A DNA stretch of 39,112 bases from a virus, in the IMG/VR virus record IMGVR_UViG_3300028549_000989, positions 1 to 39,112 of that record. One strand, written 5' to 3'. This document shows, piece by piece, positions 3,432 to 39,112 of the stretch; positions within the stretch are counted from its first letter, which is position 1; every line of letters begins with the position of its first letter. A program made the translations under genes and the position numbers. The notes beneath the pieces were generated by a model. It saw only the letters and a list, made by a program, of their open reading frames with translations, was not told where the DNA came from and did not search any database.

Positions 3432-3537
3432 TGAAAATAAATATAAAGAAACATTTAAGATACAAATAATAACAACAATTGTTATTTTAGGTGTATGTTT
3501 TATGTTTATCTATGGTGCTTACAGTGTGTATAATTGA
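3412..3537 (+). CDS. Small membrane peptide (41 aa, one hydrophobic helix)
   Basis: AAGGAGG at 3396-3402, 9 nt before the ATG. Product contains IITTIVILGVCFMFIYGAY. Confidence 0.4.
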   Translation: MKTYGTNENKYKETFKIQIITTIVILGVCFMFIYGAYSVYN

Positions 3538-3681
3538 AACATTTAAAGAACATTCAAAAGGTTATATGATACATTTAGTAGCACTATTATTGATAGCATT
3601 TGATGTATGTCTTATATGTTGTATGTGAATAACTATGTGAATAACTTTTAATGTTTTGAAACCTTAAATAAATTAAGAGAA

Positions 3682-3710
3682 GTTTATGCTATAAGTCGCA
3701 ACCTAAGATA
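3682..3710 (+). promoter_or_regulatory. Putative phage-RNAP promoter, copy a (GTTTATGCTATAAGTCGCAACCTAAGATA)
   Basis: One mismatch to the copies at 13464-13492 and 34940-34968. All three are + oriented. Contains CTATA as in T7/SP6/K11 promoters. Confidence 0.5.
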
Positions 3711-3846
3711 GGGTGCCGTTAAAGTACTCATGTAATGCATCTATAATAGAGTTTTAAAAGGTACTTTATATGGTCTATTAAAGATTTATCTATAATAGTA
3801 ATCTTTTAAAGACTTTGCTTTATATAATATCTATATAAGAGTACTT

Positions 3847-3913
3847 GTAAAGACTCATGTAAAGACTCATGTAAAGACTCATGTAAAGACTCATGTAAAG
3901 ACTCATGTAAGGA
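3847..3913. repeat. 12-bp tandem repeat GTAAAGACTCAT x5 plus a partial sixth unit
   Basis: Perfect units at 3847, 3859, 3871, 3883 and 3895. A degenerate copy AAAGTACTCATGTAA lies near 3720. Confidence 0.9.
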
Positions 3914-3959
3914 GGACTTTGTTTTTAATACAAATAAAAAGTAAAACATCTAAGGATAA

Positions 3960-3979
3960 CTTGTAAAGATATCTTTATA
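3960..3979. repeat. 20-mer CTTGTAAAGATATCTTTATA containing the 14-bp perfect palindrome TAAAGATATCTTTA; identical copy at 35210-35229
   Basis: Exact 20-nt identity between two non-coding blocks about 31 kb apart. Confidence 0.85.
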
Positions 3980-4085
3980 AGAATTATTTGTTTTGTATTA
4001 TTTAATAAGTTGTATTCATTTAAAGGGCGTTTAAAACGTTTTTAAATGAAAGGAATAGAAAGATATAGGTAAAGGTGCGTTTGAT

Positions 4086-4120
4086 GCTTGTAGGTATCTT
4101 AAAACGCTTTATATGATGTA
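4086..4120 (+). promoter_or_regulatory. CTTGTAG..TATAT box, + orientation, 26 nt upstream of ATG 4147
   Basis: GCTTGTAGGTATCTTAAAACGCTTTATATGATGTA. Near-identical inverted copy at 32943-32978. Related copies at 33026, 33115, 33196, 36541 and 24923. Confidence 0.45.
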
Positions 4121-4146
4121 TTATAAAACAAAGGAGGAAAACATTT

Positions 4147-4467
4147 ATGGATTTATTAGAAAGAGTATTTAAAGATGCTATTAAAAGTATCATTAAAGGA
4201 TATCAATTAAGTGATGAGGTAAGAGAGATACAATATATAGATAGTATGTTAAGCAGTAGTGTAGCAGATGCGTTTATTGAGTGTTCTTTTAAAGGTGTTT
4301 ATAAGACGCTTAATAAGAATGATAGAGATAGACTTGTAAAGAAACTTGGAATGACTTTTTATGATGCTATAATATACATAGACAGTGTAAGCAAAACAAC
4401 GGACATTTATGGAACTAATAAGGAAACATTGATGATAACATTTGAAACAAAGGAGGACAATGTATGA
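4147..4467 (+). CDS. Hypothetical protein immediately upstream of the RNAP gene
   Basis: AAGGAGGAAAACATTT RBS. The stop overlaps the RNAP start (ATGA). Confidence 0.6.
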   Translation: MDLLERVFKDAIKSIIKGYQLSDEVREIQYIDSMLSSSVADAFIECSFKGVYKTLNKNDRDRLVKKLGMTFYDAIIYIDSVSKTTDIYGTNKETLMITFETKEDNV

Positions 4468-6932
4468 AAGGAACAGTAGAAAAGCAACTTGAAATAGAAG
4501 AGCAGATAAAGGAGGAAGCAATTCAAAAATACTTATTAGATTTAAGTAATGCTATAAGCCAAAATAGATTCTCTCAGACCAATGAGGGTTTTTATTTATT
4601 GAAAGCAACGTTAAATAAATATGAAGAAGCATTAAATACTTTTTTAGATACATCGTATAGAGGACAACTTGAAAAGGATAAGAAGTTATTGTTTTTAATG
4701 TTTAATAAGACAGATGTATTAGCACTATCTGTATTGAATGAAGTGATAAACAGTATAGGTTCTGGTTCAAGCATAGCAGTAACATCATTAGCATTAAAGA
4801 TTGTGAGAGAGTTAAAGAAAGTAGCGATGCATAAGAATATAACGCACGATAATCCAAAGTTCATAAGTTATCTTGGGACGGAGTTTAAAAGAGCATCTAA
4901 GAGTAGAAAGGATGTATTAATAGCGAAGCATTTAAAGGACTTAAAAGACTTTGATGTATATAATAAAGATACAAAGATAGCAACACGTATAGGTGCTATG
5001 TTATTGGATGTATTAGAGAAGAGTGGAGCGAATATTATAGAGAAATTTACTATAATAGATGGTGTTAGAACTATATATCATTATAGATTAACACAAGAAG
5101 CTAAGGAGGGCTTATTAAAATTAGGTAGGAATGCGTTAGGAAATATTATGACGAATGCTAATAGGCTTCCTATGATTGTTCCTCCTGTTCCTTTTGATAA
5201 TGATACATTGAAAGGAGGCTATTATAAGTATCCTATACCATTAGTAAAGGCTATTCATAAGGAGCATAGAGCATTCATTAAAGGAAAGGATTACAGTAAG
5301 GTTATACCAGTTGTTAATAAACTACAAGCGGTGCCTTGGAAGTTTAATAGTAGAGTTATAGATGTTATGACAGATATCTTTGAAAATAATATGTTAGACC
5401 CACGAAATAGAAGCAAACTCCCTAAGTTATTTGGAGGGCTTCCAACAGCGTCAGTGTATAAGGTAGATGAATTAGTAAAGAAAGAAGAGTTTGGACGTTT
5501 AAAGAATGGCTGGGAACTTGGAAAGGAAGCATTTCATAGTTATACAAAGGCTAAGAATGAGATGTATATATTATTAGACAAAGAGATGGGAAATAGATTA
5601 GCATTGATGTTTGCACTTAGTGTATATACAAAGATGTGTGATTATGATGCTATATATTTTCCTCAACAGTTAGATTATAGAGGACGTGTATATCCACATC
5701 CTACATTTGTAAGCATCCAACAGCCATCTTATATAAAGGCTATGTTAGAGTTTGCTGATGGAGAAGTATTAGATGCAGTAGGTATGGATGGTTTAAAGAT
5801 ACATCTAAGTAATTGTTTTGGAAATGATAAGGCACCATTTGATGAACGTATAAAGTTTATTGAAGATAACTTAGAAGACATTTTAAAGACAGCACAAGAC
5901 CCAATAGAGCATATCTTTTATTGGACACAGGCAGATAGTCCTTTTGAATTCTTAGCAGGATGTTTTGCGTTAGATGATGCTTTAAAAGGGCTTCCTGTAA
6001 CGCTTCCTATACAGTTAGACTCTACGTGTAGTGGTATCCAGATGTATTCTGGATTATTATTAGATGAAGAGGGAGCGTTAGCAGTGAATGTTATAGGAGA
6101 TACAAGACAAGACATCTATGGAAAGGTAGCAGATAAAGTTAATTCTTATTTAGAACTTGGAGAGTATCCTCAAATGATTGAATTTAAAGACTCAGAAGGA
6201 GCAGAAAGAATTGTATCTACAATAATAGAAGCAGAGAGTATTAAAGGAAAGATTAAAAGGGCACACGTAAAGAAAAACGTTATGACACTGCCTTACAATG
6301 CTTCTTTTAGAGGCATGCAAGACCAAGTAAGGGCAGACTTTGAAGACATAAAGTTTAATGGAGATGCTTTTTGGAAAGGAGAGTTTTGGGTTGTTGTTAG
6401 ATTGTTAGCAACATTGAATAGTAAAGGTATCTATGAAATCGTTAAAGGTGCTGTAAAAGGTCAAGAGTATTTCAAAGACTGTGCTAAGGCTCTTAAAAGA
6501 CCTGCTACTTGGCTAACACCTATATATAATCTTCCTATTATGCAACCAGCATATAAGACAGATACACATATAGTGCAGACCTTAATAGGACGTCTAAGTG
6601 TTCAATACTCTACGGATGAATTAGATAGAAGAAGCCAAGTAAATGCAATAGCACCTAATATAATACATTCAATAGACTCTACGGTGCTTTATGGTACAGT
6701 AGATAAGTTTAAAGAAACACATATAGGAACTATACACGACTGCTTTTTATGTCATCCTAATTATTGGAGAGACATGCAGGAAGCATTTAAAGATGCTTAT
6801 ATAGAAATTATGGAAAGCAATCCAATGGAGTTCATAGGAAGACAATTAGACCCAGAAGGTCTTATAGAAATACCTATGATAAACACCTTAAATTTAAAAG
6901 ATGTGAAAAACTCTAAGTATATTATATCTTAA
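4464..6932 (+). CDS. Single-subunit DNA-dependent RNA polymerase (T7 gp1-like)
   Basis: 822 aa. LDYRGRVY, LDSTCSGIQMYS, KKNVMTLPYNAS, PNIIHSIDS and GTIHDCF align with T7 RNAP DWRGRVY, FDGSCSGIQHFS, RSVMTLAYGS, PNFVHSQDG and LIHDSF. Confidence 0.95.
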   Translation: MKGTVEKQLEIEEQIKEEAIQKYLLDLSNAISQNRFSQTNEGFYLLKATLNKYEEALNTFLDTSYRGQLEKDKKLLFLMFNKTDVLALSVLNEVINSIGSGSSIAVTSLALKIVRELKKVAMHKNITHDNPKFISYLGTEFKRASKSRKDVLIAKHLKDLKDFDVYNKDTKIATRIGAMLLDVLEKSGANIIEKFTIIDGVRTIYHYRLTQEAKEGLLKLGRNALGNIMTNANRLPMIVPPVPFDNDTLKGGYYKYPIPLVKAIHKEHRAFIKGKDYSKVIPVVNKLQAVPWKFNSRVIDVMTDIFENNMLDPRNRSKLPKLFGGLPTASVYKVDELVKKEEFGRLKNGWELGKEAFHSYTKAKNEMYILLDKEMGNRLALMFALSVYTKMCDYDAIYFPQQLDYRGRVYPHPTFVSIQQPSYIKAMLEFADGEVLDAVGMDGLKIHLSNCFGNDKAPFDERIKFIEDNLEDILKTAQDPIEHIFYWTQADSPFEFLAGCFALDDALKGLPVTLPIQLDSTCSGIQMYSGLLLDEEGALAVNVIGDTRQDIYGKVADKVNSYLELGEYPQMIEFKDSEGAERIVSTIIEAESIKGKIKRAHVKKNVMTLPYNASFRGMQDQVRADFEDIKFNGDAFWKGEFWVVVRLLATLNSKGIYEIVKGAVKGQEYFKDCAKALKRPATWLTPIYNLPIMQPAYKTDTHIVQTLIGRLSVQYSTDELDRRSQVNAIAPNIIHSIDSTVLYGTVDKFKETHIGTIHDCFLCHPNYWRDMQEAFKDAYIEIMESNPMEFIGRQLDPEGLIEIPMINTLNLKDVKNSKYIIS

Positions 6933-6943
6933 TATATTTAAGT

Positions 6944-6994
6944 TATAATATCTTATTTTATTTAAGGTAATATTAAGCATTCTTATGCTATAAT
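6944..6994 (+). promoter_or_regulatory. Two promoter-like elements after the RNAP gene (TATAAT 6944-6949; TGCTATAAT 6986-6994)
   Basis: The second is an extended -10 (TGnTATAAT) and shares TTATGCTATAA with the 3-copy motif. It cannot be assigned to host or phage RNAP from sequence alone. Confidence 0.4.
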
Positions 6995-7028
6995 ACATTT
7001 ATAAAAACAAAACAAGGAGGAAAACAAA

Positions 7029-7166
7029 ATGGCAAAAAGAACACCAAAAGGTTTATTGAATTTAATTAAACAAGTAACAAAGGCGGAGCAATTAAAACTC
7101 TCAAAAGAATTAAAGAAAGATTATTATAACTGGTTATCTTATAAGATAGGTTTAAAACAATGTTAA
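7029..7166 (+). CDS. Small basic hypothetical protein (45 aa)
   Basis: AAGGAGGAAAACAAA RBS. The stop overlaps the next start (ATGTTAA). Confidence 0.4.
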   Translation: MAKRTPKGLLNLIKQVTKAEQLKLSKELKKDYYNWLSYKIGLKQC

Positions 7167-32334: not shown

Positions 32335-32649
32335 ATGGCAAAAGATAAAAATAAGGATGTTATAATAGCAACACCAGAGGAAGTAGTAAATGCTCTTCCT
32401 GCTGTTACTTCAAAAGCATCTATAAATAAACTTAATAAGTTGCATGATATGCTTGCTAATTACTTTTTAGATGTATTAGAAACTGGTGAAGATACTATAT
32501 CAAGTGGTACAATAACAGCTATGAATACTTTCTTAAAAAATAATAATGTAGGTCTTGATATAATACCACAAGATCCATCATCTAAACAAGAAAGCATTAC
32601 ATATAGAATAGATAATATACTTAGACAAGAAATAGAATATAAAAAATAA
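32335..32649 (+). CDS. Terminase small subunit candidate (T7 gp18 position)
   Basis: 104 aa; assigned by synteny only. Confidence 0.4.
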   Translation: MAKDKNKDVIIATPEEVVNALPAVTSKASINKLNKLHDMLANYFLDVLETGEDTISSGTITAMNTFLKNNNVGLDIIPQDPSSKQESITYRIDNILRQEIEYKK

Positions 32650-32942: not shown

Positions 32943-32978
32943 TACATCATATAAAGCATTTTAAGATACCTACAAGGC
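32943..32978 (-). promoter_or_regulatory. CTTGTAG..TATAT box, inverted orientation, abutting the stop codon of ORF 32667-32942
   Basis: The reverse complement GCCTTGTAGGTATCTTAAAATGCTTTATATGATGTA is nearly identical to 4086-4120. Confidence 0.45.
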
Positions 32979-33114: not shown

Positions 33115-33149
33115 ACATCGTATAAATCATTTTAAGATACATACAAGGC
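33115..33149 (-). promoter_or_regulatory. CTTGTAG..TATAT box, inverted orientation
   Basis: Reverse complement reads GCCTTGTATGTATCTTAAAATGATTTATACGATGT. Confidence 0.4.
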
Positions 33150-33195: not shown

Positions 33196-33236
33196 CCTTT
33201 AAGGTGCTTTAAAATGATTTATACAGCATATTATAG
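33196..33236 (+). promoter_or_regulatory. Diverged CTTGTAG..TATAT-type box directly upstream of the terL RBS
   Basis: CCTTTAAGGTGCTTTAAAATGATTTATACAGCATATTATAGG aligns with 4086-4130, at a similar distance from the box to the GGAGG RBS. Confidence 0.35.
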
Positions 33237-33249
33237 GAGGAAACATAAA

Positions 33250-34938
33250 ATGCCAATGACAGATGAAGAATTAAAGGAAATATTAACAGAATTTGGAGTG
33301 TATCTTAATTATGTGTATTCATTTATAAATACACCAAATGCTACACCTTTACAGATGCGTTTAGCAGATATCATACAAGAGGCTCCTTCAAGGCTTATCT
33401 TAGAAGCAGCACGTGGTGTTGGTAAATCTTGGATAACAGCTGTATATGCTTCTTGGAGATTATTAAGAGATAAAAATGAAAAAGTTCTTATAGTATCTGC
33501 TAATACAGAAAAAGCAAAAGAGATAGCAAGCTTTCTTAGAAGATTATTTAGTGTTGTCCCTATATTGAAACACTTAGAACCTTCAAAAGAAATAGGTGCA
33601 GGAACAGATAGAAGAGCTTTAAAATACAGAGATAGTGCTACCGCATTTGACGTTAAAGGATGTGACATAGCAATTGCTCCTTCTGTTGCTGTTGTTGGTA
33701 TCTCTGGACAACTTACAGGGAAACGTGCTACGTTAATAATAGCAGATGACGTTGAAGTTCCTAAAAACTCCTTTACAAGCGGTATGAGAGAGAAACTTAT
33801 AAATCAAGTTAAAGAATTTGAAGCTCTCCTAATACCAGATAAACCATCTACTGTATTATTCTTAGGAACACCACAGAGTATGGAAAGTATCTATAATAAA
33901 CTCCCTTATGAAACTATTGTGCTTCCTGCTATGGTTCCTGATAAACCAGAACTTTATAATGGTAAATTAGATCCTTGGATACTACTTCAAGGACCAGCAG
34001 GAACTCCAACAGATAAAATAAGGTTTCCTACACATATCCTTGAAGAAAGAAAAGCTGGTTATGGTCTTGCAGGATTTAGATTACAATATATGCTTGATAC
34101 AACACTATCAGATGCTAATAAGTTTCCTTTAAAGTTCAAAGATATGATTACTTATCCATTGGACAGAGAAGAAGCACCAGCAACGCTTACATATGTAGGT
34201 ACAAGAGACTATATCATTGAAGATATAAGTCATTCAGGATTCACTCATGATTTCTGTGTGAAGCCTTTAAGAGTATCTTCTGAATACTTTAAATATGATA
34301 AAAAGATTATTGCTATTGACCCTTCTGGTAGAGGCTCTGATGAAACTACATATGCTATCTTAGGTGTTCTAAATGGTAATGTATTCTTATTAGATGTTGG
34401 AGGAACACGTGACGGTTATTCAAGTGAAGCTTTATTATTCTTAGCACAAAAAGCTAAGGACTATAAAGTTCATGAATTGGTCATTGAAAAGAACTTTGGT
34501 GATGGTATGTTCTTAGAACTATTAAGACCAGTATTAAATGTAGTGTATCCTGTTAAAGCTTATGAAGTATCTTCAAAAGGTCAAAAAGAAGTACGTATTA
34601 TAGATATAATAGAACCATTGACATCTAATCATAAATTGATTATCAATCAAGACATCTTTATTAGAGAATATAATGAAGCACAACAAGACATTGGAAATAT
34701 GCCTTATACATTCACTTATCAATTCTCTCATATAACCAAAGAAAGAAAATGCTTAGAACACGATGATAGACTTGATGCGGTAGCTATTGGATGTGCTTAT
34801 TTACAAAACTTAGTAAGCATCTCAGCAGAAGAAGCATTAGAACAATACAAAGATGAAATGCTTCAAAAGTTCCTTGATGAAAAGATTTATGGTGCTTCTA
34901 ATAATACATCTAATAATAACTTTTTAAAGAAGTTTTGA
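33250..34938 (+). CDS. Terminase large subunit (T7 gp19-like)
   Basis: Walker A-like RGVGKS. Size (562 aa from ATG 33250) and end-of-late-region position fit T7 gp19. AGGAGGAAACATAAA RBS favours 33250 over track start 33214. Confidence 0.85.
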   Translation: MPMTDEELKEILTEFGVYLNYVYSFINTPNATPLQMRLADIIQEAPSRLILEAARGVGKSWITAVYASWRLLRDKNEKVLIVSANTEKAKEIASFLRRLFSVVPILKHLEPSKEIGAGTDRRALKYRDSATAFDVKGCDIAIAPSVAVVGISGQLTGKRATLIIADDVEVPKNSFTSGMREKLINQVKEFEALLIPDKPSTVLFLGTPQSMESIYNKLPYETIVLPAMVPDKPELYNGKLDPWILLQGPAGTPTDKIRFPTHILEERKAGYGLAGFRLQYMLDTTLSDANKFPLKFKDMITYPLDREEAPATLTYVGTRDYIIEDISHSGFTHDFCVKPLRVSSEYFKYDKKIIAIDPSGRGSDETTYAILGVLNGNVFLLDVGGTRDGYSSEALLFLAQKAKDYKVHELVIEKNFGDGMFLELLRPVLNVVYPVKAYEVSSKGQKEVRIIDIIEPLTSNHKLIINQDIFIREYNEAQQDIGNMPYTFTYQFSHITKERKCLEHDDRLDAVAIGCAYLQNLVSISAEEALEQYKDEMLQKFLDEKIYGASNNTSNNNFLKKF

Positions 34939-34939
34939 T

Positions 34940-34974
34940 GTTTATGCTATAAGTCACAACCTAAGATAATAAAT
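34940..34974 (+). promoter_or_regulatory. Putative phage-RNAP promoter, copy c, immediately after terL (T7 phiOR-like position)
   Basis: 35 nt identical to 13464-13498. Starts 2 nt after the terL stop. Confidence 0.55.
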
Positions 34975-35209
34975 AATATTGAGGGGGCATCCTAAGAGCT
35001 GACGGGGATAATACAAAGAAACATTGTATTGTCTTTTAAAGGCACTTAGAGCTCCTCAAATGTTACTTATTATGTTCCTTAAATGGAGCATAATTTGAAG
35101 CATTTGAGGAGGGGACACCCTAAGAAGCTTCAAAAGATAATTCTCATATGATTCTTTTAAAGAGCTTTATAAAGCTACCGCTTTACATAAATACAATAAT
35201 AATGTATAT

Positions 35210-35229
35210 CTTGTAAAGATATCTTTATA
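35210..35229. repeat. Second copy of the 20-mer CTTGTAAAGATATCTTTATA (palindrome TAAAGATATCTTTA)
   Basis: Identical to 3960-3979. Related AAAGATATCTTT at 35888-35899; half-sites at 35485 and 35592. Confidence 0.85.
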
Positions 35230-35240
35230 TGCTCATCTTT

Positions 35241-35299
35241 TATAGATACTATAATAGCTCATACTAAGTCCCGTCAGAGTACCTATTATAGTATCTATA
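35241..35299. repeat. 17-bp perfect inverted repeat TATAGATACTATAATAG / CTATTATAGTATCTATA with 25-nt loop
   Basis: Arms at 35241-35257 and 35283-35299, verified by reverse complement. Confidence 0.9.
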
Positions 35300-35961
35300 A
35301 AGGATACTTATAAAACTTCATTTAAAGAGTCTTTAAAGATGCTTCCTATATTCCTCCTGTTAGGAAGTATCTTTAAATGCTCACATTAAAGGATTAACCT
35401 TGTAATGATTTACTTTACATTATATTTCATATAAAGTAACAATCATATAAAGTACTTTACAAGTACTCATAAAACTCTTTAATAGATATCTTTTTGTGTA
35501 TCTCTTTAAGCTTATCTTTAAATGATGCATCATATAGATTTATATGTATCCTTATAAAGACGGCGTTTAAGGTTCCTTTAAGGTTCCTTGAAAGGATATC
35601 TTTATGTGTATTCTTATAAGGAACTTGAAAAAATCATCAGAAAAATTCTCGTGAGGAGACCCTATTCAGTTCTTGGGATAAATCCCCTAAGGGGCTTAAT
35701 AAAGTATTATATACAGATGTTAATATAGTATTTTATAGATATCTATCTAAGGTATCTTTATAAGTTAATCCTTAGTGGATTTTAAGGACGCTGGGAGAAA
35801 ATCTTTTAAGGATACATCTAATAGATTGTTATGTTAAGTTGTATATCATTTAAAGAATCTTATAAGAATGCATTGGAAGAATCTATTAAAGATATCTTTT
35901 AATAATCTATTGATGTATCTCATCTGATAGGGCAAACCTTAAAGGAACCTTAAACTGATAA

Positions 35962-36039
35962 AGCATTTAAAGCAACCTTAAAGGAACCTTAAAAAGAATA
36001 AGCATTTAAAGCAACCTTAAAGGAACCTTAAAAAGAATA
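35962..36039. repeat. Perfect 39-bp tandem duplication
   Basis: AGCATTTAAAGCAACCTTAAAGGAACCTTAAAAAGAATA at 35962-36000 and again at 36001-36039. Confidence 0.9.
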
Positions 36040-36222
36040 AGCCTTATATGTTATATTTTGTTATTACTTATTAGATTCTTTTAAAGATAACTTTTTCAAG
36101 AACCTTAAAGGAACCTTAAAAAGAATAAGCCTTATATGTTATATTTTGTTGTTCCTTATTAGATTCTTTTTATGTTATCTTATGTTATTTTTTATTAGAT
36201 TCTTTTTATGTTATATTTTGTT
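36013..36222. repeat. Nested direct repeats: a 50-nt unit at 36013-36062 and 36101-36150; TTATTAGATTCTTTTTATGTTAT at 36156 and 36192
   Basis: Exact identities read directly from the sequence. Confidence 0.85.
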
Positions 36223-36540
36223 AGATTCTATTAAAGATTATTAAGGGACTTTTTTAAAGTTCAACCCTTTCAAGAAACCTTAAAGGAAACTTAAACGTAT
36301 AACCTTAAAGGAACCTTTCAAGAAACCTTAAACGGATAATCTTTCAAGGAAACTTAAAGGAACCTTAAACGTATAACCTTAAAGGAATCTTAAAGGGATA
36401 ACCTTTCAATGTTTTATACAATAATAAGTATAATCTTTAAAAGATGTTTAAAAAGATTTATTAAAAGATAACATAAAATGACGCCTTAAAAGGCTTTTAA
36501 TTGTTTTATATAATAATTATAAGGTGTCTTTATTTGCGTG

Positions 36541-36566
36541 CGTTGTAGGTATCTTAAAATGCTTTT
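36541..36566 (+). promoter_or_regulatory. CTTGTAG..-type box, + orientation, at the start of the right-end cassette
   Basis: CGTTGTAGGTATCTTAAAATGCTTTT matches the core of 4086-4120. The upstream AAGGTG..GCGT flank is also similar. Confidence 0.4.
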
Positions 36567-36605
36567 AATAAGGTATCTTTTGAATGTATGGTATTGTTGT
36601 TTTGA

Positions 36606-36683
36606 TGCTATAAAAATATTTATCAAATAAGTTGATTAAATAATCCGCCTAAAATAACATTAAGTTTATTTTTGTGCTATAAT
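36606..36683 (+). promoter_or_regulatory. Two extended -10 promoter-like elements (TGCTATAAA 36606-36614; TGCTATAAT 36675-36683)
   Basis: TGnTATAAT pattern, rightward orientation, no ORF immediately downstream. Confidence 0.4.
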
Positions 36684-36997
36684 TACTACATTAAAAGACC
36701 ATCGTGTTTTTTAATCTTGGCTTTTGCCTTGCCTTTGGGGGTTTCTTATGTTTTCTTTATCTTCTCTTTTTGGTGCTTCTTCTGAGGCAGTTGTTGTTGT
36801 TAATGTTATAGACGGTTTTTTATGTGTTTTTTCAGGTGTTGTTTCTTCTTTTGAAGATGGTGTTTTTTCTTTTGTTGATGGGTCTTCTCTTGATTTAGAG
36901 GAGGCTATTGTTTCTTTTAATATATCTATTTCTCTTTATAAAAATAGAGAGAGTTATTCAATTGGCTTTGCTTCTTCTATTGTTAATTTATAATTTT

Positions 36998-37041
36998 CTT
37001 ATTTCCATAAAATAAGATTATTTCTTTTTTTATGCTATAAT
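36998..37041 (+). promoter_or_regulatory. Early-promoter-type module: palindrome CTTATTTCCATAAAATAAG (36998-37016), 19-nt spacer, TGCTATAAT (37033-37041)
   Basis: Same upstream palindrome and AATTTTCTT flank as the tandem early promoters at the genome ends. Confidence 0.5.
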
Positions 37042-37082
37042 ATGTTTAGTTTTTGATCCTTTAATTAAAAAGGATATTTTTT

Positions 37083-37126
37083 AAAAAATAGGGTGCTCTC
37101 CAAGCTGGGAGTATTCTATTTTTTTT
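37083..37126 (+). terminator. Terminator-like hairpin about 45-90 nt downstream of the 37036 -10 element
   Basis: AAAAAATAG (37083-91) pairs with CTATTTTTT (37116-24). Inner stem CTCC/GGAG. A T-run follows. A second GGGGGTATTCTATCTTTTTTTT motif lies at 37151-37172. Confidence 0.4.
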
Positions 37127-37221
37127 AAAAAATTGGCTGGGCTGCGTCCTGGGGGTATTCTATCTTTTTTTTAGCTGCCCTTTTATTATTATTATTATTC
37201 AACATTGCGGAGGTTAAAACA

Positions 37222-37584
37222 ATGGAATCTATAAAAAACACAAAAAAACAAAATGCGGTGCTTTTAGCGAACATTTTAGGAACATTAGAAAAAGGTGAGG
37301 CTTTAACTGCTTTTATTAAATATTCGGATGCGGGTGCCCGAGTGATGCTTTCAAAATCAGAGGCTACTTCTTTTACTGCTTTTGGTGGCGGTTATAACCG
37401 TGAGGGTTTTGCTTTGGCAGAATTGTTTAATGTTGCTTTAAAAGTTAAGGGTTTAAATGTTAAACTTGATGGTTTAGTATCTACTTATTCTTTAATGAAT
37501 CAATTTGAGGCTATAAGTGGTATCTCTTGCTCAATAAGCGATGTTAATAAATCTTTAAGTGCTATATCTTTTGAGGTGCTTTAA
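37222..37584 (+). CDS. Hypothetical protein with FGGGYN motif; paralogue of ORF 1881-2285
   Basis: GGAGG RBS. Motif similarity to the ORF 1881 product. Codon usage looks more T/G-rich than the core genes. Confidence 0.6.
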   Translation: MESIKNTKKQNAVLLANILGTLEKGEALTAFIKYSDAGARVMLSKSEATSFTAFGGGYNREGFALAELFNVALKVKGLNVKLDGLVSTYSLMNQFEAISGISCSISDVNKSLSAISFEVL

Positions 37585-37585
37585 T

Positions 37586-37825
37586 ATGTTTGCTTTCATG
37601 ATTGCTTTTGATGAGTTTAAGGCTTTAAAATATCTTTTAGGTATATTTTTAATTTGTTTAATAGTATCCTTTTGGTATCCTTTTGGGACGCCAATAGGAG
37701 AGTTTGTTGGTGCGATTGGTTTGCTTTCTGGGTTGCCTTTTGTGCTTTTTCTTATACCGATGGCAGTTGTGGAAGTTGCTTTATATGTATATACAAAAAT
37801 TAAAAATAAAATAATAGGAGAATAA
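37586..37825 (+). CDS. Small integral membrane protein (2-3 TM segments)
   Basis: GAGGTG 7 nt upstream of ATG 37586, in frame with track start 37559. Hydrophobic throughout. Confidence 0.55.
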   Translation: MFAFMIAFDEFKALKYLLGIFLICLIVSFWYPFGTPIGEFVGAIGLLSGLPFVLFLIPMAVVEVALYVYTKIKNKIIGE

Positions 37826-37826
37826 T

Positions 37827-38030
37827 ATGTTAAAATTAAATAGAAAAGAGGAAGAAATGATTGCTGCATTCTATGCGGCGAATGAGGTTAAACATTACGG
37901 TGCACGTGCTGGAATCACTGGGGCAAATAGATGGAACTTTAATAATAACAATGACGATGAGGTTTTATTAGATGCACCAATGGGTGCAGATTTTGATGAT
38001 TATAATGATGCACTTGACGAGGACCTTTAA
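37827..38030 (+). CDS. Small protein with acidic C-terminal half
   Basis: AGGAG RBS. C-terminus DDEVLLDAPMGADFDDYNDALDEDL. Confidence 0.55.
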   Translation: MLKLNRKEEEMIAAFYAANEVKHYGARAGITGANRWNFNNNNDDEVLLDAPMGADFDDYNDALDEDL

Positions 38031-38114
38031 ATGTTATTAGAAATAGTATATGGGCTTTTAATAGGTTGTTTTGGAGTTGGCGTTTTATACGCCTGGTATA
38101 GAGGCTTTTTATAA
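38031..38114 (+). CDS. Very small hydrophobic peptide (27 aa)
   Basis: The ATG directly follows the previous stop; GAGGA 7 nt upstream. Product contains LLIGCFGVGVLYAW. Confidence 0.3.
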   Translation: MLLEIVYGLLIGCFGVGVLYAWYRGFL

Positions 38115-38226
38115 GCCTCAGTTGGCTTTCTTTTAATGTATATTTAAGGCACTTGAATAGTGCTTTAAATGTGTTTTAATGGATTCTATTAAGATACAAT
38201 AAAAATTATTATCGGGGGATAAAACA

Positions 38227-38604
38227 ATGATTATCAAAGGGTTTATTATAGGGTGTTTATTTAGTTTTTCTATAAGTGCGGTTTGTGCTGCTTTAATAGA
38301 TGAGGCGGGTGCATTGGAAGAATGTGCGGTAAATGTTATAGCAACTAAGCAAGCAACAAATGGAATATTGAATAATCATTTAAGTGCATTGGATGATTTA
38401 GAATTAAAACATTTAGCAACAACAAAAGATGCGGAAGAATATAAGCAAGACGCTTTAAAAGATGTGCGTGAAATGTCAGGCACTATTGAAAAAGAAGTTA
38501 TTGAAAAAGAATATACAGAAGAAGAAATAAATATATATATTAGTAATATAGAAAAAGATGCAGAAAAAGAAAAAGAAAATTATGTAAATAAATATAATTT
38601 TTAA
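38227..38604 (+). CDS. Membrane-anchored or secreted protein with an acidic, likely helical ectodomain
   Basis: GGGGGA RBS-like. N-terminal hydrophobic segment GFIIGCLFSFSISAVCAAL. Confidence 0.6.
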   Translation: MIIKGFIIGCLFSFSISAVCAALIDEAGALEECAVNVIATKQATNGILNNHLSALDDLELKHLATTKDAEEYKQDALKDVREMSGTIEKEVIEKEYTEEEINIYISNIEKDAEKEKENYVNKYNF

Positions 38605-38650: not shown

Positions 38651-38702
38651 ATGTTTATTTAAAAAATTTTTTTTAATATAAGCAGAATGTTATTATTTTA
38701 TT

Positions 38703-38827
38703 ATAGTAATATAATATCAACAATTAAAAGTTATTAAACTTTTTAATTAATTTCTTTTGAAATTAACAAGAAAGAAATAACATTTAATTAAGATTTATGG
38801 TATAATATCAACAATTAAAAAGGTTAA
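38703..38827 (+). promoter_or_regulatory. Two further copies of the early promoter core (TATAAT 38710-38715; TGGTATAAT 38798-38806), each followed by ATCAACAATTAAAAG
   Basis: The conserved 21-nt core TATAATATCAACAATTAAAAG is repeated. Confidence 0.5.
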
Positions 38828-39006
38828 TATCTTTTTAAATAATTTTCTTCTTTCTTATTTCCAAAAATAAGATTAAGTTTGAAAGTTATGGTATAATATC
38901 AACAATTAAAAAGGTTAATATCTTTTTAAATAATTTTCTTCTTTCTTATTTCCAAAAATAAGATTAAGTTTGAAAGTTATAGTATAATATCAACAATTAA
39001 AAGATA
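38825..39006 (+). repeat. 91-bp tandem repeat (2 units) carrying palindrome plus -10 promoter modules; unit 2 starts exactly at the DTR boundary 38916
   Basis: Units begin at 38825 and 38916. They differ at one base in the TGG/TAG preceding TATAAT, then diverge after AATTAAAAG. Confidence 0.85.
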
Positions 39007-39112
39007 CAATAAAGTAATCTTTTAATAGCCCATTAGATGCAGAAAGAAAAGAAGCATCCAACGAACAACCTCCGCAACTTTAAAAGGGAGCATTTGGTGG
39101 GCTATTAAAAGA
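38916..39112. repeat. Right copy of the 197-bp direct terminal repeat
   Basis: Identical to 1-197. Confidence 0.75.

Follow-up and report, generated by a model that had tools for sequence, protein, structure and literature searches.

In the T7-like phage genome held as IMG/VR virus record IMGVR_UViG_3300028549_000989, the gene for the large terminase subunit (terL) is followed by 2283 nucleotides (nt), positions 34939-37221, which a first-pass annotation described as a gene desert filled with repeats. The locus raises the question of what so long a stretch contributes to a phage of this kind. The answer favored here, to which we give a probability of about 0.8, is a somewhat enlarged version of the ordinary genome-end (concatemer-junction) region found in T7-like phages. 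Its appearance as a single internal block would be a product of assembly, in which the two copies of the direct terminal repeat were merged and the circle was cut open at another place. This reading builds on the observed position of the stretch, the order of its parts, the uniqueness of its motifs and their conservation in relatives. A concatemer-junction or packaging region had been among the candidate roles listed in the annotation, and it is well supported by the evidence described below.

Position of the stretch on the closed map

The window, meaning the whole 39,112 nt of DNA that was analysed, has a G+C content of about 30% and carries all of its genes on the + strand. It contains an 822-amino-acid (aa) single-subunit RNA polymerase gene at 4464-6932 (PF00940 RNA_pol) as well as both T7-type terminase subunit genes, the small subunit at 32335-32649 (PF11123, 33.8 bits against a cut-off of 27.5) and terL at 33214-34938 (PF22530 Terminase-T7), and is thus the genome of a T7-like phage. 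A search with terL returned 2695 Autographiviridae-type matches. Its identity to deposited phages is at most 54%, with Roseobacter phage CRP-143 as the best match, and is about 40% for the classical T7 group. Relatives at 55-60% terL identity are found only as metagenome contigs, some of which are binned with Campylobacterales or hydrothermal archaeal genomes.

Positions 1-197 of the window are identical to 38916-39112, and an independent, near-identical contig from the Joint Genome Institute (JGI), L018, spans the window junction uninterrupted; the start point of the window is therefore arbitrary. The exact 197-nt overlap is taken as an assembly overlap. Its candidacy as the true terminal repeat was judged unlikely, since it lies inside a tandem 91-nt promoter bank, downstream of early-type genes, and holds no copy of the C-run box (C-box) described in the next section. 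When the map is closed, terL is followed by the 34939-37221 stretch, four small ORFan genes (37222-38604), the promoter bank, more small genes, and the RNA polymerase gene (from 4464), an order that reproduces the T7 map once its two ends are connected. The stretch sits between terL and the first early genes on this circularised map, and because the window is circularly permuted, a feature missed at first pass, the two genome ends appear as one large internal desert. Other T7-like genomes have been circularised by assemblers in the same way, with the repeat placed mid-contig (PMC3350473; PMC10438801), and the published assemblies of the marine T7-like phages Syn5 (237-base-pair (bp) repeat) and P-SSP7 (206 bp) are circularly permuted with the repeat inside the contig (PMC3350473).

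Two contigs agree closely with the window. L018 differs from it at 2 positions within the desert and at 9 over 21.7 kb, and Logan contig L019 is identical over its reach, which ends 31 nt beyond the terL stop; the desert is therefore not an assembly artefact. The contig ends of relatives were uninformative as marks of physical ends, as their breaks coincide with repeats.

The length of the stretch has to be compared with both ends of T7. The first-pass annotation set it against the few hundred nt that T7 has beyond gene 19, a figure that leaves out 924 non-coding nt at the T7 left end, contiguous with the right end in a permuted window. [quoted passage not shown] The equivalent span in T3 is 1526 nt, and in relatives the distance from terL to the next credible gene is 738-1913 nt. 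With spans of about 1.57 kb in T7, 1.53 kb in T3 and 0.7-1.9 kb in relatives, the statement that nothing comparable is established in T7-like phages finds no support. When an 81-aa open reading frame (ORF) near the right side of the stretch is counted as a gene, the three sub-segments measure 720, about 265 and 826 nt; the corresponding T7 lengths are 647, 160 and 764 nt. Nor are genes elsewhere in the window all within 40 nt of one another, as had been stated; other non-coding gaps measure 715 nt (3432-4146), 271, 227 and 196 nt, with a further gap of about 600 nt across the window junction.

The predicted left-end module and terminal repeat

The landmark for the start of the terminal repeat is the left-end C-box, the G+C palindrome CCCCTAAGGGGC at 35684-35695 (+ strand). 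It is the sole match to CCCCDWAGSSS in the 39-kb window, where 0.03 would be expected. The C-box rule was derived here from seven characterised phages and is not a published definition. The left ends of T7 (L016), T3 (L107), gh-1 (L109), P-SSP7 (L111), SP6 (L112), phiKMV (L113) and Syn5 (L110) were compared, and in all seven, which represent different subfamilies of the Autographiviridae, the distance between the experimentally known left end and a C-run is 25-29 nt. In six of them (A/G)TAG and G/C come next, and in Syn5 GCTA and a second C-run, giving the general form CCCC(C)-(A/G)TAG-GGG/CCC. Under this rule the window contains a C-box, and the strict form is also found once, in + orientation, after terL in eight relatives at 55-60% terL identity (L020, L022, L026, L028, L029, L030, L031 and L116), with a TATG variant in L114. 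A search of the open-access literature for the C-box motif and for short-repeat arrays found nothing specific, no description of such an end-prediction rule was found in the searchable literature, and an exact-pattern scan of IMG/VR with the C-box region gave no match.

A second element stands at a fixed distance upstream. The junction box AAAAATTCTCGTGAGG (35641-35656, + strand) has a TCTC that begins 37 nt before the C-run. Relatives carry AAATATCTC(A)GTGG 37-39 nt ahead of their own C-run, and T7 and T3 carry AAAAATCTGA(G/A)TG 37 nt ahead of theirs, just outside the right-hand repeat copy, so that the window shares with T7 and T3 a box of the form AAAAAT(T)CT..GTG at this distance from the C-run palindrome. 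Six uncultured relatives at 55-60% terL identity (L020, L022, L029, L031, L116 and L117) and Roseobacter phage CRP-143 have non-coding gaps of 0.7-1.9 kb after terL with their own short-repeat arrays, and a single C-box with its upstream box is present in all of these except L117 and CRP-143. The 25-29 nt rule and the upstream box together place the left physical end at about 35647-35659.

From this end a direct terminal repeat of about 265 bp is tentatively predicted at 35647-35921 (+ strand), with its left end within 35647-35659 and a tentative right boundary at 35921; the assembly would contain a single copy of it and virion DNA two. The right edge is taken from ATCTGAT at 35922-35928 (+ strand), a candidate polymerase pause site that departs at a single base from ATCTGTT, the class II pause/termination signal of T7 (the 'CJ' site), which is located at the T7 junction (bioRxiv 10.1101/2021.01.11.426313). 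The sequence ATCTGT(T/A) occurs at the repeat end, or at most 4 nt beyond it, in T7 (161), T3 (232), SP6 (174), Syn5 (238) and gh-1 (220), and ATCTGAT at 35922 is the only ATCTG[ATC][AT] within 900 nt downstream of the left-end module. The predicted length falls within the range of known repeats (T7, 160; T3, 231; gh-1, 216; Syn5, 237; phiKMV, 414). Syn5 and P-SSP7 resemble the window in having a C-run box 25-27 nt from the left end, and Syn5 also has ATCTGTT at the repeat boundary; they differ in that their ends were mapped experimentally, and P-SSP7 does not have ATCTGTT.

On the right-end side of the predicted repeat, the stretch opens with a predicted promoter for the phage single-subunit RNA polymerase, the 28-nt TTTATGCTATAAGTCRCAACCTAAGATA at 34941-34968 (+ strand), which begins 3 nt past the terL stop. 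Exactly three exact copies exist in the window (3683, 13465 and 34941) and none is expected, which bears out the promoter proposed in the annotation. The predicted promoter thus lies shortly past terL and is directed into the junction, as is phiOR of T7 and T3, which stands about 80-100 nt after gene 19. Relatives L020 (+6) and L022 (+68) likewise have their own repeated TGCTATAA-type promoter soon after terL.

Directly after ATCTGAT begins a set of arrays with 17 direct AACCTTAAAGG-type 11-mers (35935-36410, + strand), organized in higher-order units of 39, 88, 37 and 25 nt; the 17 units themselves span 35935-36396. Two further tandem 11-mers are inverted at 35564-35585 (- strand), upstream of the predicted terminal repeat, with 21 nt 100% complementary to 35935-35955, so that short-repeat arrays flank the predicted repeat on both sides. 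Allowing at most two mismatches, AACCTTAAAGG is matched 54 times in the window, where 17 +/- 4 matches would be expected; when no more than one mismatch is allowed, 15 matches fall in the desert and 3 elsewhere. The nested direct repeats noted at first pass are therefore real. Between the two 11-mer arrays lies a very A+T-rich block (36040-36240, + strand) with 36-nt repeats in 2.5-2.8 copies (period 36 at 36135-36233), and the G+C fraction over 36001-36500 is 0.24.

Arrays of this kind are also found at T7-like genome ends. T7 has eight CCTAAAG copies at 175-332, and T3 has CCTTAAAG/CCTAAAG directly after ATCTGTT; T7, T3 and the window thus share an ATCTG-type heptamer followed at once by a short direct-repeat array with a CCT(T)AAAG core, called SRL in T7 and T3. 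Dunn and Studier reportedly named the T7 arrays SRL and SRR in 1983, and as far as we know the function of the short-repeat arrays in T7 and T3 has never been settled. Each relative has its own short-repeat array in the equivalent gap, with different motifs. CCT(T)AAAG was rejected as a family-wide array motif and is treated as resemblance, not homology.

The resemblance to T7 and T3 therefore comprises the location between terL and the early genes, similar sub-segment lengths, the promoter after terL, the box ahead of the C-run, the heptamer with its array, and finally tandem host-type promoters (A1-A3 in T7 and T3) leading to small early genes. The differences are also considerable. Sequence homology is limited to short motifs, with blastn finding nothing, and the stretch measures 2283 nt rather than about 1570 nt. 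Its arrays are longer and arranged in higher-order units, its inverted repeats are much larger, and it has a family of 14-bp palindromes in addition. The heptamer is ATCTGAT instead of ATCTGTT, there is no phiOL-like phage promoter after the array and no homologue of gene 19.5, and the physical ends are predicted.

Several observations weigh against the junction interpretation. The box in the window has the form CCCC-TAAG-GGGC and not the (A/G)TAG form, a TAAG variant that is shared with L022. A left-end-module profile built from nine other phages (nhmmer) matches 35636-35701 at E = 1.1, ranked second to a chance match; this is the only near-full-length match of the profile and is not significant alone, so the case for the left end rests on the unique C-box and its context. 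ATCTG[ATC][AT] is common, with 21 occurrences on the + strand of the window (about one per 1.9 kb), and ATCTGAT is one base off ATCTGTT, a signal that P-SSP7 and phiKMV do not have. For T7 polymerase, any base change is said to abolish the class II signal (bioRxiv 10.1101/2021.01.11.426313). CCT(T)AAAG is enriched only in the window, L022, T7 and T3 and not in most relatives, and its presence may be coincidence. At 2283 nt, the stretch is 45% longer than its T7 counterpart and the longest of about 45 loci examined, and something extra may be present. Finally, the physical ends and the terminal repeat are predictions from sequence, and pausing and binding by terminase or other proteins are proposed by analogy with T7.

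Taken as a genome-end region, the stretch would read rightwards from the terL stop as a phiOR-equivalent promoter, a right-end non-coding zone of about 720 nt with inverted repeats and palindromes, a cutting site at about 35647-35659, where the repeat would begin and from which the C-box lies 25-29 nt inward, the terminal repeat itself with its roughly 265 bp, the possible pause site ATCTGAT, an SRL-equivalent array, and host-type promoters into the early genes. [quoted passage not shown] Starting from the 34941 promoter, the phage polymerase would transcribe across the junction and pause at the right edge of the repeat, and the paused complex may aid the terminase (the 32335-32649 product and TerL) in cutting and packaging. 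The repeat would then be duplicated, so that the virion carries a copy at each end. Pausing of T7 polymerase at the junction and its interaction with gp18/gp19 have been described (PMC3276506).

Arrays, hairpins and alternative roles

A perfect 14-bp palindrome, TAAAGATATCTTTA, is located at 35214-35227, with degenerate copies at 35481, 35591, 35734, 35747 and 35887. Allowing at most three mismatches, it has 46 matches in the window against 14.4 +/- 4 expected, in keeping with the abundance of palindromes reported at first pass, and perfect copies occur only at 3964 and 35214. We know of no T7 counterpart to the extra length or to these palindromes. Conceivably, the 17 direct and two inverted AACCTTAAAGG repeats that bracket the predicted terminal repeat, together with the TAAAGATATCTTTA palindromes, form a binding platform for a phage protein that organizes end formation or replication, with the terminase small subunit or an early DNA-binding protein as candidates; this additional role is rather unlikely. 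Relatives have palindromes of another type. Fur-box-like palindromes (TGATAATCATTATCA or GAATGATTATCATT) are present in three copies each in L020 (9850-10080), L022 (4500-4760) and L105, the CRP-143 locus (2250-2400), and stand just after the C-box in L020 and CRP-143. None was found when they were sought in the window.

The same arrays could make the stretch mainly a replication origin, in which an initiator would bind the AACCTTAAAGG repeats as iterons, the A+T-rich block that they flank (36040-36240) would unwind, and transcription from the 34941 promoter would prime or activate initiation. In favor of this are the 17 direct and two inverted 11-mers around a stretch of 24% G+C and the phage promoter upstream, and clustered direct repeats of about one helical turn beside an A+T-rich block are typical of iteron-type origins in plasmids and some phages. 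However, those origins differ in having an adjacent initiator gene, and here no Rep-type gene is adjacent; the neighbors are terL and ORFan early genes without a family match. The array directly follows the predicted repeat, the position in which T7 and T3 carry their end-associated short repeats, and better candidates for a primary origin lie beside the polymerase gene at 3432-4146 and 6933-7159. T7-type origins consist of a promoter and A+T-rich DNA and are not iteron-based, and to our knowledge T7-like phages do not use iteron origins. An origin as the main function is thus improbable. Since T7 phiOR and phiOL are named for their association with secondary origins, an origin role would nevertheless be compatible with the junction reading.

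The gap at 3432-4146, which precedes the polymerase gene and measures 715 nt, is a second large non-coding region besides the desert. In it lie the first phage promoter (3683), the perfect TAAAGATATCTTTA copy at 3964, and 5.4 perfect copies of the 12-mer TGTAAAGACTCA at 3846-3910. It is a candidate origin or regulatory region.

Between the 34941 promoter and the predicted repeat, the DNA is rich in inverted repeats. The stretch from 34975 to 35130 (+ strand) is strongly structured, with a minimum free energy of -56.7 kcal/mol (z = -7.35) and an inverted repeat with 27-nt arms; its two long hairpins (about 34992-35049 and 35052-35111) are flanked by the direct G-rich boxes TTGAGGGGGCATCCTAAGAGCT and TTGAGGAGGGGACACCCTAAGAAGCT. 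A similar box-hairpin-box layout is visible by eye in L020 and L022. Two large inverted repeats follow, one at 35235-35305 with 23-nt arms that are 96% complementary (-30.8 kcal/mol, z = -7.2) and one at 35327-35382 with 22-nt arms, of which 17 bp are perfect (-27.2 kcal/mol, z = -7.4); the long hairpins of the first-pass annotation are thereby confirmed. The 35235-35305 repeat, which lies to the right-end side of where the terminal repeat is predicted, could adopt a hairpin or cruciform structure. For T7, Chung, Nardone and Hinkle are said to have proposed in 1990 that a hairpin at an inverted repeat left of the right-hand repeat is an intermediate in concatemer processing.

These structures could instead indicate long non-coding or small RNAs that act as RNAs, made from the 34941 promoter and from host-type promoters at 36675 and 37033. 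The first 450 nt past the promoter do fold far better than shuffled sequences (z about -7), and a strong terminator about 45 nt after the second host-type promoter would yield an RNA of about 78 nt. However, a search of the desert against Rfam gave no family at gathering thresholds, the one sub-threshold match being a plant microRNA (E = 0.47), and there is no alignable homologue in which covariation could be assessed. Furthermore, long perfect inverted repeats are equally well explained as hairpins at the DNA level or as sites of RNA processing, and the repeats in 35400-36400 have no RNA structure. A role of the stretch as RNA is accordingly very improbable. A transfer RNA (tRNA) scan found none. 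In relative L022 (60% terL identity), 11 tRNA genes lie directly upstream of terL (646-1543) and a tRNA-Asn lies within the post-terL non-coding region (3951-4026).

The absence of genes, claimed at first pass for both strands, largely stands. On the + strand, 34939-36723 (1785 nt) and 36994-37221 are both free of ORFs of at least 55 aa. Between 34939 and 37221, the longest frame from stop to stop has 92 codons, where composition-matched shuffles have a mean of 69 and a 95th percentile of 94, and best-frame codon scores are below zero across 34900-36700 in every frame. Comparison of the desert by blastn with 50,697 phage records gave no match, and when about 1 Mb of loci from relatives was searched with blastn and tblastx, only the same phage was matched, so that the search proposed with the annotation turned up neither a conserved frame nor a DNA match.

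The doubtful part of the claim concerns the ORF at 36724-36993, which had been dismissed as a composition artefact. Read from the ATG at 36748, it gives an 81-aa ORFan (36748-36993, + strand) with a weak GGGGG 7 nt upstream of the ATG, and it is called as a gene by JGI. Its codon score is +0.51 bits per codon, with lower scores in the other frames and 0.26-0.55 in bona fide genes; T occupies codon position 3 in 61 of 81 codons (75%) and G position 1 in 31 of 81 (38%). A search of 5.8 billion proteins, Pfam and PHROGs returned only the protein itself, with no homologue and no family. From these codon statistics, the ORF is probably a real small early gene. Antisense to it is a 74-codon open frame (36714-36935, - strand) without an ATG, GTG or TTG start, which would encode a low-complexity K/E/T/S-rich peptide and is probably a by-product of the codon periodicity of the sense strand. 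That the stretch consists of missed genes with unusual starts or small products, or of a decayed gene remnant, is extremely improbable in spite of this gene-like ORF, the antisense frame and the precedent of the 49-aa gene 19.5 in T7, given the negative codon scores in every frame over 34900-36700, ORF lengths at chance expectation, the lack of tblastx, protein or family matches, and a likely coding portion of at most about 250 of 2283 nt.

Host-type promoters, early genes and implications

The right-hand part of the stretch leads into the early genes through two host-type promoters predicted from consensus matches. P1 (36654-36683, + strand) has the extended -10 element TTTTTGTGCTATAAT (10/12 matches with TG; -10 at 36675), and P2 (37012-37041, + strand) has TTTTTATGCTATAAT (-10 at 37033) and is 82% identical to P1. 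Both are also paralogous to the units of the promoter bank at 38700-39002, in which a 91-nt unit with an extended -10 (TGGTATAAT or TAGTATAAT) is repeated four times in tandem. Tandem host-type promoters are thus predicted at 36675 and 37033 and at four places in 38700-39000, and the bank looks like the equivalent of the T7 A1-A3 early promoters.

Downstream of P2 lies a predicted intrinsic terminator or attenuator (37083-37125, + strand) composed of an A-run, an 18-bp stem and a T-run (-19.4 kcal/mol, z = -4.6). A tandem duplication of 44 nt (period 44, 2.1 copies) begins with this unit, and the second unit, 37118-37161, does not fold (z = +0.45). Its position about 45 nt past P2 predicts either the RNA of about 78 nt mentioned above or an attenuator ahead of the gene at 37222.

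Another recurrent element in this part is the 22-mer TGTAGGTATCTTAAAATGCTTT / TGTAGGTATCTTAAAAYGCTTT at 36544-36565 (+ strand), with other copies at 4089-4110 (+), 32953-32974 (-) and 33124-33145 (-). All four copies of TGTAGGTATCTTAAAAYGCTTT are non-coding, none is expected, and the two upstream of terL point leftwards. Its sequence reads like a -35 element (TTGTAG) with a spacing of 17-18 nt and a weak -10 (TATGAT).

The early cassette (36650-38100) has a T-rich coding strand (AT skew -0.37 to -0.12), whereas the rest of the genome is A-rich. Its proteins are all ORFans without a Pfam or PHROG match. One of them, a 67-aa protein (37827-38030), has a very acidic C-terminus, DFDDYNDALDEDL, and has a weak tblastn match (E = 5e-4) to the early gene that comes first past the junction in L022.

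For metagenome-assembled T7-like genomes, which join the two non-coding ends and start at an arbitrary point, a post-terL 'desert' of 1.5-2.3 kb is to be expected. The long and regular arrays of this phage could serve as a model for the unexplained short repeats associated with the ends of T7 and T3, and if they do act as a binding platform, the shared CCT(T)AAAG core would make the phage a clean natural variant for testing the function of the T7 and T3 repeats. The C-run palindrome 25-29 nt from the left end, combined with the TCTC..GTG box, appears sufficient to predict, from sequence alone, where the genomes of uncultured T7-like phages physically end, and the C-box together with ATCTGT(T/A) at the repeat boundary could be a general end-prediction rule for T7-like genomes. 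Ultimately, such end prediction would help to re-orient and compare the genomes of uncultured T7-like phages.

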